From contig JBAQNJ010000001.1 of the NCBI GenBank assembly GCA_049303675.1, positions 890,001-954,000 of the forward strand: DNA of 64,000 nucleotides, read 5' to 3'. The stretch is from Microgenomates group bacterium (GTDB taxonomy: Bacteria > Patescibacteriota > Microgenomatia > UBA12405). The notes beneath the pieces are model-generated. The model saw nothing but the letters and a program-made list of their open reading frames with translations, was not told the DNA's origin and did not search any database. Below are positions 1 through 27,345 of this stretch, piece by piece; positions within the stretch are counted from its first letter, which is position 1; each line of letters starts with the position of its first letter. Position numbers and translations under genes: made by a program.

Positions 1-483
1 GGTCGTGTTTCCCGTGCTTTTGCTATGATTCCGCTCTATGTTGAGGGATATGACATCCGCCGATTATTTTCGCTCGAAGAATATTTCGATCGCAACGCCG
101 AAGATTATTACAATACTATCCAATCTACCCATGTCCTCGCCTCAGATATTTTTCACCGTGATCTGACCAATTGGATTGCCTTTTTTACGGAGGCTTTGAG
201 TATCGAATTTACCCGTGTCAAGGAAAAAGTCCAATCACTCTCCCGCGATATCAAATTCAAACAAAAACTCGGCGGCAAACAAGTCCATCTCTCCGAACGT
301 CAAATAAAATTAGTGGAATATATGCAGCAATTCGGCGGCCTGCGCATGCCCGATGCCAAATCGCTCCTGCCGATGATTAGTGACGACACCATCTGGCGCG
401 ACCTCAAAAAACTAATTGATGATAAGGTCTGTGAAAAACGGGGGAGCACCAAGGGCGCCTATTACTGTCTGACAAATGTCTAG
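1..483 (+). CDS. Fic/DOC family protein, C-terminal portion (5' end runs off the window start)
   Basis: Frame is open from base 1; first residues GRVSRAF resemble the tail of the Fic HPFx[DE]GNGR motif, followed by a helical/winged-helix-like C-terminal region; stop at 481-483. Confidence 0.45.
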   Translation, partial: GRVSRAFAMIPLYVEGYDIRRLFSLEEYFDRNAEDYYNTIQSTHVLASDIFHRDLTNWIAFFTEALSIEFTRVKEKVQSLSRDIKFKQKLGGKQVHLSERQIKLVEYMQQFGGLRMPDAKSLLPMISDDTIWRDLKKLIDDKVCEKRGSTKGAYYCLTNV

Positions 484-20316: not shown

Positions 20317-21031
20317 AATTATCTATAATTTGCTGCAGGTCCCCCGGTAATATAGAATTCACCTCAATTATCTTATTGGTTATAGGATGGGCAAGTTTAA
20401 TGCTAGTAGCATGTAAAAATTGGTGTGATAATCCAGCGACTACTCCACCCTTATATAGGGTATCTCCTACCAAGGGCCAGCCAAGATAGCTAAAATGCAC
20501 TCTAATTTGATGTGTCCGTCCTGTCTTTAGATTTACCAAAACCAGTGAAAATATCTTGCCGCCAATTTTGAGTTTTTTTATTCTCTCAAACTCGGTAATA
20601 GCCTCTTTACCTGACTCGTCAACTCTAAATTTTCCAAAAGAGTATTTTGACCTCTTAATAGGCATTTTTATATCCCCTACTTTTGGCAAGTCACCTCCCA
20701 CTAAAGCCAAATATTTTTTAACAACCTTTCTATTCTTTATTAACGATTTTAGTAACCCGAGTGTTTCTCCATCCCTAGCAATAATTACCACTCCCGATGT
20801 TCCCTTATCCAAACGGTGGACTATCCCCTCTCGAGGCAAGTCATTGGGAAAATACAACTTCATCCAGTCTTCCAAATATATGTTTCTTTCGTCAGTTGAC
20901 CTTTCCCGAGTAGTCACCATGCCAGCCGGCTTATCCACTATTAGTAAATGTTTATCTTCATACCAAACAGTAACTACTTCTTTATCAATTTTTCCCATAT
21001 ATACCATCCACAACCAATAAATATCAACCAA
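20306..21031 (-). CDS. RluA-family pseudouridine synthase
   Basis: 241 aa; catalytic HRLDKGTSGVVIIA motif; no S4 domain. Confidence 0.85.
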   Translation of the reverse strand: MVDIYWLWMVYMGKIDKEVVTVWYEDKHLLIVDKPAGMVTTRERSTDERNIYLEDWMKLYFPNDLPREGIVHRLDKGTSGVVIIARDGETLGLLKSLIKNRKVVKKYLALVGGDLPKVGDIKMPIKRSKYSFGKFRVDESGKEAITEFERIKKLKIGGKIFSLVLVNLKTGRTHQIRVHFSYLGWPLVGDTLYKGGVVAGLSHQFLHATSIKLAHPITNKIIEVNSILPGDLQQIIDNYES

Positions 21032-21261
21032 TCATTAATATTATTATACAAGGGGGTAAATGGAATCCTCCAATAGTCGGTGACATATCCTCTCAATATC
21101 CTTTCTGCCAAATTAAGGCCACCCCCCACCACCACCAGCCACAATGACATTTTCTTGTTGGTAACTGCACCATAAACTATCAACCCCCACAACAGACAAC
21201 TCACCCAGACTATCGCCGGAAAACTCTGGCCAAAACTTATACCATAATTTTTAACAATCAT
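20974..21261 (-). CDS. short lipoprotein signal peptidase (LspA)-like membrane protein
   Basis: 95 aa; GGGLNLAERI...YVTDYW...WLIFIG resembles the GG..N..DR and downstream conserved blocks of signal peptidase II but is only about 60% of normal length. Confidence 0.4.
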   Translation of the reverse strand: MIVKNYGISFGQSFPAIVWVSCLLWGLIVYGAVTNKKMSLWLVVVGGGLNLAERILRGYVTDYWRIPFTPLYNNINDWLIFIGCGWYIWEKLIKK

Positions 21262-21262
21262 T

Positions 21263-21649
21263 TTATTCCTGTTCTTGCGCGCATTTTATACACACAGTTA
21301 CCTCTGGTTTGACGGCCAAACGATCTGTATCAATCATCTTGCCACACTTCTCGCAAATTCCATATTTGCCGAACTTGATCATAGTTAGAGCTTTGCGCAA
21401 TTGCACCAATTGTTTTTTGATAAAACTTACTTTGACCTCGGTTTCAAAATGACCCACCTGTTCGTCCACATCCTCTTCTACTGAATTTTGCGCCAATCGG
21501 TTGTTATCGGAAAATGGATCATTTTTCTTCATATTTTTCTCTGTCTTCTTCCACCTAATCACCTCAGACTCCAAAAACTTCTGAATAGGGACTAGTAAAC
21601 TTTTTGGGAAACTTACTGTTACTTGTTTATTTTTTTGCACCATAGACAT
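21263..21649 (-). CDS. DksA/TraR-family C4 zinc-finger protein
   Basis: 128 aa; C-terminal CEKCGKMIDTDRLAVKPEVTVCIKC. Confidence 0.8.
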   Translation of the reverse strand: MSMVQKNKQVTVSFPKSLLVPIQKFLESEVIRWKKTEKNMKKNDPFSDNNRLAQNSVEEDVDEQVGHFETEVKVSFIKKQLVQLRKALTMIKFGKYGICEKCGKMIDTDRLAVKPEVTVCIKCAQEQE

Positions 21650-22253
21650 CTCCTAGGATACCCAATCCCACTCCAAAAATCAAACTCATGATTATGTAAA
21701 ACCCCGCCGCCAACCAGTTGCTATCGCCAAAAAATGCCATTGTCGCCAATGCCAAACATAGCCAAATGTTGACAAAGAAAAAGACAAAGCCTTTCTTGCC
21801 ACTTTTATACCACACAAATGACCTGTATTTGTCTCTCATCAAATTAGACAACAGATAACCCCCCACCAATATCAGTAGCACCAATATATTTTTCCATCCA
21901 AATGTCTGACCAACTTTTTCACTTACCCAAATAAAACAGACAAACAAATAATAAATAGGTAGTACGTCTTCTAAAAAAGACCATAGTTTCCAACCATATC
22001 TAACACAACACCACCACGTCCACAAGAACGCTAGTCCGATTCCTCCTCCAAGGTTAGTATTTTGGACTCTCCAAAATTGCCACCAACCAGCAAAATTAAA
22101 ATTAGTCAAAATACTTCCCCCGACCAGCAATACCAAAACACTACTCCATCCGTAGGAAATAAGTAAATTATCTTGATAGTCTTCATTCAAGTTTCGCCAA
22201 ATCAAATAGAGAAAAATAACTATCCCCAAAATTTTTATCATTCCCAAAACCAT
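21627..22253 (-). CDS. hypothetical membrane protein (possibly Lgt-like)
   Basis: 208 aa; Trp-rich with about 6 TM helices; sits beside the LspA-like gene; no clear Lgt signature. Confidence 0.4.
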   Translation of the reverse strand: MVLGMIKILGIVIFLYLIWRNLNEDYQDNLLISYGWSSVLVLLVGGSILTNFNFAGWWQFWRVQNTNLGGGIGLAFLWTWWCCVRYGWKLWSFLEDVLPIYYLFVCFIWVSEKVGQTFGWKNILVLLILVGGYLLSNLMRDKYRSFVWYKSGKKGFVFFFVNIWLCLALATMAFFGDSNWLAAGFYIIMSLIFGVGLGILGDVYGAKK

Positions 22254-22292
22254 AAGCTATTTTACACTATATATTTGTTATACTAGACCAGC

Positions 22293-22346
22293 TTTAGCCG
22301 AATTGGCGGAATTGGTAGACCTGTCTGCCGACAGGCAGGCGCGCAC
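22293..22346 (+). pseudogene. 5' fragment of tRNA-Leu (28-bp duplicate of the genuine tRNA 5' end) followed by an inserted hairpin
   Basis: tttagccgaattggcggaattggtagac at 22293-22320 is identical to 22582-22609; continues into hairpin cctgtctgccgacaggcagg, then gcgcac, then the GIY-YIG start codon. Confidence 0.7.
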
Positions 22347-22586
22347 ATGGATAACGAATACTATGTTTACCTACTTAAATGTAACGATGATTCGTACTAT
22401 AAAGGAATAACTTCAAATCTCGACAGACGATTCAAACAACACCTACTTGGTCAATGTCAATCAACAAAAAATAAGTGCCCTCGAATAGTTTTTGTTCAAA
22501 TTTGCAGAAATAGGTCGGAGGCAAGATATTTTGAGAAGTACTTAAAATCCGGCATCGGTCGTGAGATAATAGCAGAGTTAATTTAG
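22347..22586 (+). CDS. GIY-YIG nuclease-family small protein (YhbQ/UPF0213-like)
   Basis: 79 aa; YVYLLKC...YYKGITSNLDRRFKQH...E signature of the GIY-YIG fold; its stop codon overlaps the first base of the intact tRNA-Leu. Confidence 0.75.
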   Translation: MDNEYYVYLLKCNDDSYYKGITSNLDRRFKQHLLGQCQSTKNKCPRIVFVQICRNRSEARYFEKYLKSGIGREIIAELI

Positions 22587-22669
22587 CCGAATTGGCGGAA
22601 TTGGTAGACGCGCACGACTCAAAATCGTGTGGCAGCAATGTCATGGGGGTTCGATTCCCTCATTCGGCA
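22586..22669 (+). tRNA. tRNA-Leu (anticodon CAA)
   Basis: GCCGAATTGGCGGAATTGGTAGACGCG..., anticodon loop CTCAAAA, long variable arm, T-arm GGGGG-TTCGATT-CCCTC, acceptor 3' strand ATTCGGC plus discriminator A. Confidence 0.85.
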
Positions 22670-22673
22670 CACT

Positions 22674-22898
22674 CTATTTTTCATATATACCCACAGCTCT
22701 TAATATCAAATCTACACCTGTTTCTATTTTTCTTCCTATTGGTAGAGTGCAAAATCTGTTCTTATCTCTGTCGATACTCAACAATGTCAAGTTAAGCCTT
22801 TCTTCTGTTTTTATTCCCATTTCCAATTTTTCCTCGTCTGTAAAAGGTTTTAATTCCACTCTGTCTAATAATAAGAAAACATTACCCATATAATCCAA
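22674..22898 (-). CDS. hypothetical protein
   Basis: 74-aa ORF whose start abuts the stop of the upstream 134-aa ORF; the pair are probably co-translated. Confidence 0.35.
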   Translation of the reverse strand: MDYMGNVFLLLDRVELKPFTDEEKLEMGIKTEERLNLTLLSIDRDKNRFCTLPIGRKIETGVDLILRAVGIYEK

Positions 22899-23303
22899 TT
22901 ATACTACCTTCTTCTCTTCCATTTTTTCAAGCAACGATTCTCCCACAAAATAGGCTTCATTTGCCATATCTATCCATCTCGTCCTGTGAGCTGAACCATC
23001 ATGTTTTCCCCCCGTCATTGCCTTAGTTAGATCATTTAAAGCTCTCTGTTTTCGTACTACTGGGGCCACCACTTTTGTCAGTTCATGATCCTCATCAACT
23101 TTCAATTCACCCCCTCGATCATCGTTCGGCTCAAAATTTGAGCAAGGGTGAACCCCCATTACTCGCAATCCAAACATACCTAGACCTGTTATAACCTCAA
23201 TCTGCTCTTCAAAACCAAGTGGATCTGACCCCTGTGATCGTATCTCTAGGTGTTTTTTTGTCCACGACACCTGTCTCTCTAGTACTTCGCCGACAGTCTT
23301 CAT
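22899..23303 (-). CDS. hypothetical protein
   Basis: 134 aa; no recognisable domain. Confidence 0.45.
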   Translation of the reverse strand: MKTVGEVLERQVSWTKKHLEIRSQGSDPLGFEEQIEVITGLGMFGLRVMGVHPCSNFEPNDDRGGELKVDEDHELTKVVAPVVRKQRALNDLTKAMTGGKHDGSAHRTRWIDMANEAYFVGESLLEKMEEKKVV

Positions 23304-23335
23304 ATCCTATATTATATCACCCCTTCTTCTCCACA

Positions 23336-23686
23336 TCAAAAAAGCCAACCTCTCAATTTTTGAAAAATTATTATCAGGAGCAAAATTAAATCATGGATTA
23401 ACCCTGCAATCGCATAAGAAAATAATACTAACAAAATTCCTCCAAACAAATCTTTAAAACTAAAAATAAAACTCTTTTTCTTAAAACTAAAATTAATTAC
23501 AATTAAGGCCACAAACATCAGTATAAATATGTTTCTAAACCACAACCAATACGGTAAAATTACCTGTAAGTATTTAGTAGTTTGTATTACCACTGTTGGT
23601 GATATTGAACCTGCAACAAAAAAAACAGCGATCAACACGGAAATTGTCATAAAAGTCCCTGGTATATAGTAAAAATATTTTTTCAT
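23336..23686 (-). CDS. hypothetical membrane protein
   Basis: 116 aa, 3-4 TM helices. Confidence 0.45.
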   Translation of the reverse strand: MKKYFYYIPGTFMTISVLIAVFFVAGSISPTVVIQTTKYLQVILPYWLWFRNIFILMFVALIVINFSFKKKSFIFSFKDLFGGILLVLFSYAIAGLIHDLILLLIIIFQKLRGWLF

Positions 23687-23694
23687 ATATTATT

Positions 23695-27039: not shown

Positions 27040-27345
27040 ATGTCAGAAGAAAGAATTCAAAAACCAGGAGCAACATACATCAAATGTCCCAAAAATTGCT
27101 GTCTATTAGAGACTACAGCCCAACAAGATGTATATTGCAAAACTACCGGCGAGGTCTTTGAACCCCCCGAATATCGTGGCGCCTACAGCTTATCCGCGGA
27201 GCAACTATATACCTACTACAACCTCAATGTCTCTGGTCTTCCCGATAAAGATTTTGTCGATAGTTTATTTCCTCTACATCCAGATCATACCGTGGTCACC
27301 AACCGCAATGCGGGGTGCCTGCCTGCCGGCAGGCAGGTTGTTTGA
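27040..27345 (+). CDS. hypothetical Cys-containing protein
   Basis: 101 aa; its C-terminal residues are encoded by the CCTGCCTGCCGGCAGGCAGG palindrome. Confidence 0.4.
   Translation: MSEERIQKPGATYIKCPKNCCLLETTAQQDVYCKTTGEVFEPPEYRGAYSLSAEQLYTYYNLNVSGLPDKDFVDSLFPLHPDHTVVTNRNAGCLPAGRQVV
27318..27337. repeat. 20-bp perfect palindrome CCTGCCTGCCGGCAGGCAGG (one of two copies of this hairpin family)
   Basis: Near-identical to CCTGTCTGCCGACAGGCAGG at 22320-22339 inside the tRNA-Leu 5' fragment. Confidence 0.8.

Follow-up and report, generated by a model that had tools for sequence, protein, structure and literature searches.

We analysed a stretch of 64,000 nucleotides from a Microgenomates group bacterium (assembly GCA_049303675.1, contig JBAQNJ010000001.1, positions 890,001 to 954,000; hereafter the window), in which a gene encoding a 79-residue GIY-YIG nuclease lies immediately ahead of a tRNA-Leu gene and is itself preceded by a partial copy of that tRNA (the remnant), interrupted by a 20-nucleotide palindrome that we term PAL (Table 1). 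The unit formed by remnant, palindrome and nuclease gene is referred to below as the cassette. It is framed by an exact 28-nucleotide direct repeat, TTTAGCCGAATTGGCGGAATTGGTAGAC, at 22293-22320 and 22582-22609, with the nuclease open reading frame (ORF) between both copies. The repeat occurs nowhere else in the window, even with up to three mismatches, and no copy arose in 100 shuffled sequences. Only the downstream copy continues into a complete tRNA-Leu(CAA), the single one called at 22586-22670 by both ARAGORN and Rfam (58.8 bits). The upstream copy runs into PAL and then into a few further tRNA bases, which terminate at 22346 and abut the ATG start codon at 22347; at the other end of the gene, the last base (G) of the TAG stop codon is nucleotide 1 of the tRNA. 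A preliminary description of this DNA had pointed out each of these elements, namely the duplicated 5' segment, the single complete tRNA, the succession of upstream copy, hairpin, tRNA bases and start codon, and the overlapping stop codon. All are confirmed, as is its view that the 5' part of the tRNA has been duplicated so that an intact tRNA survives.

Table 1. Features of the tRNA-Leu cassette and of a solo palindrome, in coordinates of the window
Feature	Position	Strand	Basis or remark
Extended -10-like element TGTTATACT	22276..22284	+	Sequence reading; in the 40-nucleotide divergent intergenic region between lgt and the tRNA
tRNA-Leu remnant, part 1: leader TTTA (4 nucleotides) and tRNA nucleotides 1-23, identical to the intact gene	22293..22319	+	Exact repeat; local alignment up[-54..-28] = tRNA[-3..23]
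PAL, 20-nucleotide palindrome, variant CCTGTCTGCCGACAGGCAGG of the consensus CCTGCCTGCCGGCAGGCAGG	22320..22339	+	Precisely between tRNA nucleotides 23 and 24, at the 3' edge of the D-loop
tRNA-Leu remnant, part 2: CGCGCAC, tRNA nucleotides 24-30 (5' strand of the anticodon stem)	22340..22346	+	Alignment up[-7..-1] = tRNA[24..30]
Gene for the 79-residue minimal GIY-YIG nuclease, SLX1/YhbQ/UPF0213 clade	22347..22586	+	Pfam PF01541
Promoter-like TTAAAA-N17-(TG)GATAAT within the LKSG.GREII codons	22542..22570	+	15 nucleotides upstream of tRNA +1; promoter scan
Intact tRNA-Leu(CAA)	22586..22670	+	ARAGORN; Rfam RF00005, 58.8 bits
Solo consensus PAL CCTGCCTGCCGGCAGGCAGG	27318..27337	.	Outside any tRNA remnant; no GIY-YIG gene adjoining

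The locus is not an assembly artefact, since the Logan assembly of SRR28062879 contains an independent 2181-bp contig identical over positions 20442-22622 of the window, an interval that takes in remnant, ORF and the beginning of the tRNA, and since the same structure is present in syntenic relatives. A scan of the window at Rfam gathering thresholds returned tRNAs only, with neither a group I intron nor any other Rfam family. A group I intron was rejected on this ground and because exon sequence is duplicated, where an intron would leave contiguous flanks, in agreement with the earlier opinion that the insert is not an intron. Integrative elements leave partial tRNA copies, and the remnant could in principle be the attachment-site duplication of an integrase-type island. 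A tyrosine or serine recombinase island was rejected because no such ORF lies between the repeats, the insert measures only about 290 bp, and it is the 5' end of the tRNA that is duplicated, not the 3' end. Given these points, the identical independent assembly and the many relatives with the same structure, the probability that the locus is either an island scar or an artefact is negligible.

The encoded protein matches Pfam family PF01541 with 52.8 bits (cut-off 22.6, E-value 5e-14) over profile positions 2-70 of 78. The tyrosine of the GIY motif is Y8 (within YVY), as read from the window sequence, and residues Y18, R28, H32 and E63, the last being the metal-binding glutamate, are invariant or at least 90% conserved in an alignment of 28 sequences. 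An AlphaFold model with a predicted local distance difference test score (pLDDT) of 92.6 has strands at residues 5-11, 17-22 and 46-53 and helices at 25-33, 56-67 and 69-78, a predicted fold of a three-stranded sheet with helices that Foldseek matches to GIY-YIG structures. UPF0213 and SLX1 structures score 0.59-0.71 in query TM-score (TMq), the SLX1 nuclease domains among them, including those of SLX1-SLX4 complexed with 5'-flap and branched DNA, reaching 0.66-0.71, as against 0.42 for I-TevI. A profile of the family matches PDB entries with E-values of 6.5e-12 for 1zg2, 2.8e-11 for 1ywl, 2.8e-5 for SLX1 and 0.055 for I-TevI; it matches the UPF0213 proteins BH0048 and EF2693 at about 1e-11, and T4 endonuclease II and I-TevI only marginally. 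SLX1 is a cutter of branches and 5' flaps, and its family includes YhbQ and YazA (PMC7017083). According to Pfam and AlphaFold, a second domain is absent: the whole 79-residue protein is a single domain with no DNA-binding domain. Its sequence and predicted structure mark it as a minimal nuclease of the SLX1/YhbQ type, presumably structure-selective by homology, and not as a homing enzyme of the I-TevI type. The earlier assignment as YhbQ-like holds, the best matches in both sequence and structure being UPF0213 and SLX1; the label of classic homing endonuclease does not suit a bare catalytic domain of this type.

Neither the protein nor its family is matched by any NCBIfam model or PADLOC defence-system model. 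There is a weak match to a PHROG annotated 'homing endonuclease' (E-value 0.0013), and the association with phages is weak, with 4 family loci among 2.9 million viral contigs. A word-indexed homologue search returned only the protein itself; an exhaustive HMMER search was used and yielded 2,799 relatives at an E-value of 0.001 or below, the best of them only about 50% identical. One alignment of these (A1) was too diverse for locus retrieval, and a second (A2) was used in its place.

From contigs representing one genome per species we obtained 80 homologue loci, belonging to Patescibacteria, Bacteroidota, Planctomycetes, several metagenome-assembled genomes (MAGs) labelled 'Gammaproteobacteria', and other taxa (L numbers below denote loci, P numbers proteins). 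A tRNA gene on the same strand starts within 60 nucleotides after the stop codon in 39 of the 80 loci and ends within 200 nucleotides upstream in 26, so that 58 are tRNA-adjacent by one or other measure; an opposite-strand tRNA within 200 nucleotides was seen in none of the 80. The adjacent tRNAs comprise Leu (11), Arg (8), Asn (5), His (3) and Gly (3), and also Gln, Ser, Val, Phe, Met, Asp and Glu. Local alignment of the 160 nucleotides upstream of each ORF with its downstream tRNA revealed the architecture of the window (type A) in approximately 30 of the 80 loci, at Leu, Arg, Asn, His, Gly, Met, Gln, Asp, Phe and Glu tRNAs. Within this protein family the arrangement is consequently not the unusual one that it had at first been taken to be.

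Type A loci share a fixed order, in which the native upstream flank is followed by tRNA nucleotides 1 to p, a 20-nucleotide insertion and nucleotides p+1 to q; after a short spacer come the ORF and then the intact tRNA. The insertion costs no tRNA base, the remnant being continuous from p to p+1. In the 28 loci with a 5' remnant, 1130 of 1180 positions match the locus's own tRNA, and 12 of the 28 remnants are perfect; they end mostly at tRNA nucleotides 30-40, usually in the anticodon arm. The duplicated block begins at tRNA +1, with 0-4 shared leader nucleotides (median 2), in 26 of 31 loci, and in 21 of 31 the stop codon falls within the duplicated leader or the tRNA. Cassettes of this type thus run right up to the mature 5' end of the tRNA, usually without a stop codon of their own. 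The overlap of ORF and tRNA amounts to 1 nucleotide in the window (stop codon at 22584-22586) and to 10-23 nucleotides in L005, L016-L018, L023, L025, L026, L049, L056 and L077.

The hairpin in the remnant had been treated as incidental, which proves mistaken: PAL is the most conserved element of the architecture, its exact form CCTGCCTGCCGGCAGGCAGG being present in 18 of 31 remnants across phyla. The variant CCTGTCTGCCGACAGGCAGG is common to the window, L002 and L047, and other variants keep the outer arms with extra sequence in the middle. PAL is inserted precisely, in the dead tRNA copy, mostly at tRNA nucleotides 20-24 (the 3' edge of the D-loop) and also at 30-34 (the junction of anticodon stem and loop) or 9-12. 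A PAL core lies within 400 nucleotides of the ORF in 34 of the 80 loci, whereas 346 kb of more distant flanking sequence hold only 5 copies, an enrichment of about 30-fold; PAL is found in some 80% of remnants of 30-60 nucleotides, with a background of about one copy per 70 kb. Compensated changes in the arms are seen as CCTGTC...GACAGG in the window, L002 and L047, and as CCCGCC...GGCGGG ('PAL-2') in L018, L079, L050 and the solo copy of L177, L036 being near-compensated. Uncompensated single variants are about as frequent, and on these sequences covariation of the hairpin is only suggestive.

The exact 20-mer also occurs at 120 or more loci in metagenome contigs, whose G+C content ranges from 29 to 71%. 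Among the PAL matches listed, 7 have a GIY-YIG gene within 600 nucleotides and about 12 are associated with a tRNA; a GIY-YIG gene is present somewhere in 9 of the 120 listed loci, which together span 680 kb, and in none of the listed loci did removal of PAL restore a full tRNA. Solo copies are mostly intergenic, with 27% inside long ORFs compared with 75% of random positions. Targeting of hairpin loops by solo copies was rejected, as the junction falls in a loop for 32% of both PAL and random positions and minimum free energies do not differ. Short direct repeats of at least 8 nucleotides flank 14% of PALs and 2% of random positions, and in L084, L086, L110, L124, L127, L136, L152, L161 and L187 solo copies lie in or between tandem heptamer-like or 8-14-nucleotide direct repeats; such repeats may be either target-site duplications or the sign of a preference for repetitive intergenic DNA. 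The solo copy in the window (Table 1) encodes the last codons (…CLPAGRQVV*) of a 101-residue orphan ORF at 27040-27345, for which neither homologues nor a Pfam match were found, and lies 295 nucleotides downstream of tRNA-His, just before a terminator-like hairpin.

A distribution of this kind could reflect a pair resembling repetitive extragenic palindromic (REP) sequences and REP-associated tyrosine transposases (RAYTs), in which the nuclease mainly processes and spreads PAL, and tRNA remnants are preferred or collateral PAL targets near the enzyme gene. Such a pair would suit a palindrome that is exact across phyla in which the proteins are only about 45-50% identical, its enrichment beside the gene, the GIY-YIG genes in 9 of 120 loci, the mostly intergenic solo copies in contigs of such varied composition, and the presence in the window of one cassette and one solo consensus copy; an SLX1-type fold would also be expected to cut hairpin and branched DNA. 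Set against this, PAL variants show no association with protein clades, a whole subfamily of the proteins follows tRNAs without PAL, solo sites have no preference for hairpin loops, and the enzyme is of the GIY-YIG class, not an HUH/Y1 transposase. To our knowledge GIY-YIG enzymes form no covalent intermediate, so that no known copy-and-paste chemistry applies to the spread of PAL. We regard this explanation as quite unlikely.

Traces of the same architecture are visible in database proteins. Peptides resembling PAGRQ or PACRQ occur in 28 of 151 representative homologues (P0003, P0006, P0009-P0011, P0014-P0016, P0020, P0022 and others), and many listed relatives begin with odd extensions such as '...VAKWYTWLPAGRRA...', '...VELVDLPAGRQAR...' and '...LPAGRQ...' at the N-terminus, others ending in C-termini such as '...VAKLADAHA'. 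As far as their sequences indicate, these are the translated tRNA D-arm, palindrome CTGCCTGCCGGCAGG and downstream tRNA, gene callers having read through the same arrangement. The PAGRQ-type extensions of tRNA-linked small proteins mostly look like gene-calling artefacts through remnant and PAL, and the real start is likely to be the ATG just ahead of the (Y/F)xVY motif. GIY-YIG domains of the same family are also found in frame inside larger proteins (P0065, P0104, P0106 and P0107, also P0004, P0078 and P0091), which by eye look like HsdS-like specificity subunits of type I restriction systems. In the first four of these the PAL translation, LPAGRQ or PACRQAG, lies ahead of the domain and in some cases behind it as well. 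It may be that PAL and the nuclease invade protein-coding genes too.

The history of the window locus can be followed in related genomes. L003 shows complete synteny with the window (rluD, lspA, dksA, lgt, remnant, PAL, ORF, tRNA-Leu, dnaB), L002 carries the same cassette in rearranged surroundings, and L205 and L206, from a Shapirobacteria MAG, have a cassette at the same lgt-proximal site. In L205 (reverse complement, approximately 40-110 nucleotides from the lgt start) PAL has diverged to cTTGCCCGCCGTGGTGGGCg with retention of the hairpin, and the D-loop of the remnant holds a second mini-palindrome, TCCGCCTTGGCGGA. A lone tRNA-Leu(CAA) lies between dnaB and lgt in L202, L203 and L204, and no GIY-YIG gene, remnant or PAL was found in this interval. 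The cassette is thus patchy among related genomes, being present in the window, L002, L003 and L205 and absent from L202-L204. The tRNA-Leu of cassette-free L202 is 100% identical to that of the window, so no difference in target or immunity resides inside the tRNA. On the 3' side of the tRNA-Leu of the window, three minus-strand orphan ORFs (74, 134 and 116 residues, without Pfam match) occupy 22674-23690, as far as dnaB. Syntenic L003 lacks them, its dnaB coming directly after the tRNA, and this segment is possibly an indel or islet at the same tRNA.

A classical free-standing homing endonuclease would cut the cassette-free tRNA-Leu in a sequence-specific manner, and its gene would be copied in by double-strand-break repair. 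The GIY-YIG domain, the patchiness among syntenic relatives, the weak PHROG match and the precedent of phage SegB in tRNA clusters can all be cited for such an enzyme. The protein is however only 79 residues long and has no DNA-binding domain, it is structurally similar to SLX1 and UPF0213 and not to I-TevI, its family sits at no fewer than ten unrelated tRNA sequences, and family matches in viral contigs are few. Moreover, the intact tRNA of the occupied allele equals that of the empty allele, so that the site is not destroyed, a comparison that concerns the tRNA and not its upstream flank. We consider classical homing very unlikely. The footprint of an insertion that the preliminary description saw here stands in so far as gain, loss and movement of the cassette fit the comparisons (many tRNA species, tandem arrays, cassette-free syntenic relatives); a homing endonuclease as its agent does not.

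The ORF is under purifying selection, the ratio of non-synonymous to synonymous divergence (dN/dS) being 0.17 between the window and L002, 0.26 between the window and L003, and 0.32 between L002 and L003, with synonymous divergence (dS) of at least 1. In each of these three the remnant nevertheless matches its own tRNA throughout, at 30 of 30 positions, and in the aligned sequences the few differences between the tRNAs of the genomes are mirrored in each genome's own remnant. The remnant therefore evolves in concert with its own tRNA, and its identity in spite of such divergence points to homogenisation by gene conversion or renewal by re-insertion, not to neutral decay.

Departures from type A are informative about how cassettes behave. 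In mirror-image loci a full tRNA and its terminator precede the ORF, which is followed by a 3' tRNA remnant, and PAL is again in the dead copy only. One such locus, L041, has it in the T-loop, and L055 and L060 resemble it. L008 and L056 have, after the intact tRNA, a pseudo-copy that contains PAL. There are also homologues with a full tRNA on either side, the two differing in anticodon (Val-Val, Ser-Ser, Leu-Leu). This configuration had been named beforehand as one that would speak for duplication with decay; it does occur in these other family members, and it may represent one stage of the same life cycle. Amplification is evident in the isolate Zunongwangia atlantica, where four tandem 316-bp units of remnant, PAL and ORF precede one tRNA-Arg(TCG), and units are also repeated in L047, L015, L028, L032 and L076. 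Decay is seen in L180, with a decayed ORF and two PALs in the remnant, and in L002, where a relic of another ORF end lies upstream of the remnant. In L009, 9 of 50 remnant positions disagree with the resident tRNA, and the remnant is instead the same as the tRNA-Arg found in other flavobacteria, so that remnant and resident tRNA there have different histories. Closely related proteins are also found at different tRNAs and in different phyla: those of L048 (Ser) and L068 (Trp) are 74% identical, those of L016 (Phe) and L032 (Arg) 66%, and those of L011 (Flavobacteriaceae) and L068 (Patescibacteria) 70%.

Ten loci (L011, L021, L048, L053, L054, L057, L058, L068, L070 and L075) constitute a second subfamily, whose members from Flavobacteriaceae, Saccharibacteria and other Patescibacteria share about 70% identity. 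Its genes come immediately after tRNAs (Val, Ser, Trp, Glu), mostly with no PAL, and another GC-rich hairpin, of the type CTTCGC...GGCGAG, occurs with them. PAL-interrupted remnants beside an intact tRNA, with no nuclease gene between, are seen in L160 (1-150), L133 (7300-7400) and L200 (1234-1289), that of L160 deriving from an allele of tRNA-Val(GAC) other than that of the intact gene. In L116 (170-385) a full tRNA-Ala(CGC) bordered by a 12-bp inverted repeat, CTGCTATTGCCT / AGGCAATAGCAG, sits inside the two halves of an older tRNA-Ala, whose 3' half has PAL in the T-loop, and no GIY-YIG gene is nearby. In L116 a tRNA cassette appears to have overwritten a tRNA gene.

Alternatively, the nuclease might be a domesticated housekeeping gene co-transcribed with tRNAs, the remnant an old tandem tRNA duplication, and PAL an unrelated REP-like repeat tolerated in dead DNA. 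The dN/dS values of 0.17-0.32, the orthologous cassettes at the same lgt/dnaB site in the window, L003 and L205, the homologues between two full tRNAs, the dispersed and mostly intergenic solo PALs, and the lack of covariation between PAL and protein are what this alternative would lead one to expect. A decaying remnant should however have diverged at dS of 1 or more, and instead it equals its own tRNA; chance cannot place PAL in about 80% of remnants given its background frequency; the same architecture, always joined at tRNA +1, is found at ten or more tRNA identities; tandem arrays and decayed copies exist; and near-relatives in different phyla are found at different tRNAs. We judge this alternative to be unlikely.

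The cassette appears to be expressed together with its tRNA. The TATACT -10 element noticed earlier is present at 22279-22284 and is preceded by TG at 22276-22277, as in an extended -10. On reading of the sequence, TGTTATACT is presumed to be the native tRNA promoter, which would now drive remnant, ORF and tRNA; L205 has the same motif, as TGCTATACT, at the same place. A consensus promoter scan made no call at 22276-22284, because a -35 element is absent. Since the remnant retains the native upstream region, the ORF is probably transcribed as a leader of the tRNA precursor. Near the end of the ORF, the LKSG.GREII codons read TTAAAA-N17-TGaGATAAT, a motif conserved in L002 and L205, and cassette-free L202 and L203 carry TGATAGAAT about equally far from tRNA +1. 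With low confidence, the cassette may supply or replace the promoter of the intact tRNA. As the stop codon overlaps the tRNA and RNase P cuts at +1, only unprocessed transcripts would give a complete, terminated protein. Processing by RNase P would leave an mRNA without a stop codon. Translation and tRNA maturation from one transcript look mutually exclusive, and removal of all or part of the stop codon by RNase P is a plausible brake on the level of the nuclease.

On balance we think it probable that the locus is one of a large cross-phylum family of very small, tRNA-docked, recombination-driven selfish cassettes that are transcribed with the tRNA. The tRNA promoter would transcribe the cassette as a long leader of the tRNA precursor, from which RNase P would then free the tRNA. 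The nuclease would read DNA structure (for instance hairpins or a cloverleaf arising from tRNA genes and PAL) instead of sequence, because a bare SLX1-type domain cannot read ten or more different tRNA sequences, with putative cuts at junctions of single strand and duplex. The position of cassettes at the junction of leader and acceptor stem, and that of PAL at stem/loop junctions, fit a structure-selective cutter of hairpin or cloverleaf DNA. The breaks would be repaired by homologous recombination between tRNA repeats, which would copy, amplify, homogenise or precisely delete the cassette; with incoming DNA, tRNA homology would permit insertion at homologous tRNA genes and movement from genome to genome and from one tRNA gene to another. 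The insertion would be harmless because the duplication leaves one tRNA intact. A bolder reading, offered only as a tentative possibility, is that PAL and the minimal SLX1-like nuclease constitute an unrecognised cross-phylum palindrome-plus-nuclease mobile system, a GIY-YIG counterpart of REP and RAYT with structure-guided targeting. Cassettes would then dock exactly at +1 of any tRNA gene via recognition of the hairpin or cloverleaf, and the same enzyme would process or spread the 20-nucleotide PAL.

Several observations tell against the proposal of a selfish, tRNA-docked cassette. The comparison with empty sites that the preliminary description called for did yield cassette-free relatives, but in L202-L204 the tRNA is inverted relative to lgt, so these are not clean empty sites and offer no before-and-after junction. 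A nuclease aimed at the tRNA would cut its own locus too, because the intact tRNA is the same as that of cassette-free L202. With dS of at least 1 the cassette is old in this lineage, and its conserved protein would suit a domesticated host function just as well. Some PAL-bearing tRNA remnants have no GIY-YIG gene beside them (L116, L160, L133 and L200), most PAL copies among the matches listed are solo and distant from any such gene, and the variants of PAL are not associated with protein clades. The proposal also leaves the entry of PAL into the remnant unexplained.

If the proposal is correct, these would be among the smallest self-contained nuclease cassettes of which we are aware, at about 300 bp, with tRNA genes serving as universal safe harbour, promoter and recombination handle, and the large, function-less YhbQ/UPF0213 family would acquire a testable biological context. 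It would further explain the partial tRNA genes that confuse annotation, the spurious '...LPAGRQ...' N-termini of database proteins and the short tandem arrays ahead of tRNA genes, and structure-guided docking at tRNA +1 would represent a new targeting principle for mobile DNA. The analysis also brings to light a perfect palindrome of 20 nucleotides, dispersed through genomes, whose conservation extends from Patescibacteria to Bacteroidota and for which we know of no enzyme or function. No description of the architecture or of PAL was found in the open-access PubMed Central and bioRxiv literature.

Comparison with known systems reveals partial similarities to several. The bacterial UPF0213/YhbQ/YazA proteins and the SLX1 nuclease domain share with the window protein the Y, Y, R, H and E residues and, in the bacterial case, the form of a stand-alone catalytic domain of about 80-100 residues; the window protein differs from SLX1 in having neither its zinc finger nor an SLX4 partner. 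For the bacterial proteins we found no description of a function, a tRNA linkage, a tRNA remnant or a palindrome. Group I introns with GIY-YIG ORFs in tRNA anticodon loops likewise combine such a gene with a tRNA and have breakpoints near the anticodon loop, whereas the cassette has no ribozyme, duplicates the exon instead of splitting it, and consists essentially of the ORF. Islands inserted by tyrosine integrases also duplicate part of a tRNA while an intact gene is kept. These islands are kilobases long, carry an integrase and usually duplicate the 3' part of the tRNA; by contrast, the cassette has no recombinase, measures about 290 bp, usually duplicates the 5' part and holds a palindrome in the dead copy.

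The classical homing endonuclease is a poor model, because there is no DNA-binding domain and the target is not destroyed. With REP and REPIN elements and their RAYTs, the family has in common a short, dispersed and mostly intergenic palindrome that is enriched beside the gene for a small nuclease-type enzyme. RAYTs belong to the HUH/Y1 transposases, and REPs are imperfect palindromes particular to a lineage, whereas the cassette enzyme is a GIY-YIG protein and PAL is a perfect 20-mer across phyla, situated inside tRNA remnants; the comparison with REP and RAYT fails because the enzyme class is wrong. Phage SegB cleaves DNA that contains tRNA genes, and the tandem amplification of the tRNA-segB segment that it drives depends on recombination (PMC13096335). 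Like segB and other GIY-YIG genes of T-even phages, those described here are embedded among tRNA genes and can form tandem arrays. Seg proteins are phage enzymes of roughly 200 residues or more with DNA-binding domains, in contrast to the present family, which is represented here by a bare 79-residue domain in cellular chromosomes with a stereotyped remnant and palindrome and a junction at tRNA +1. By analogy, the cassette would work most like a nuclease-gene cassette of the SegB kind, combined with the tRNA regeneration of integrative elements and a REP-like palindrome.

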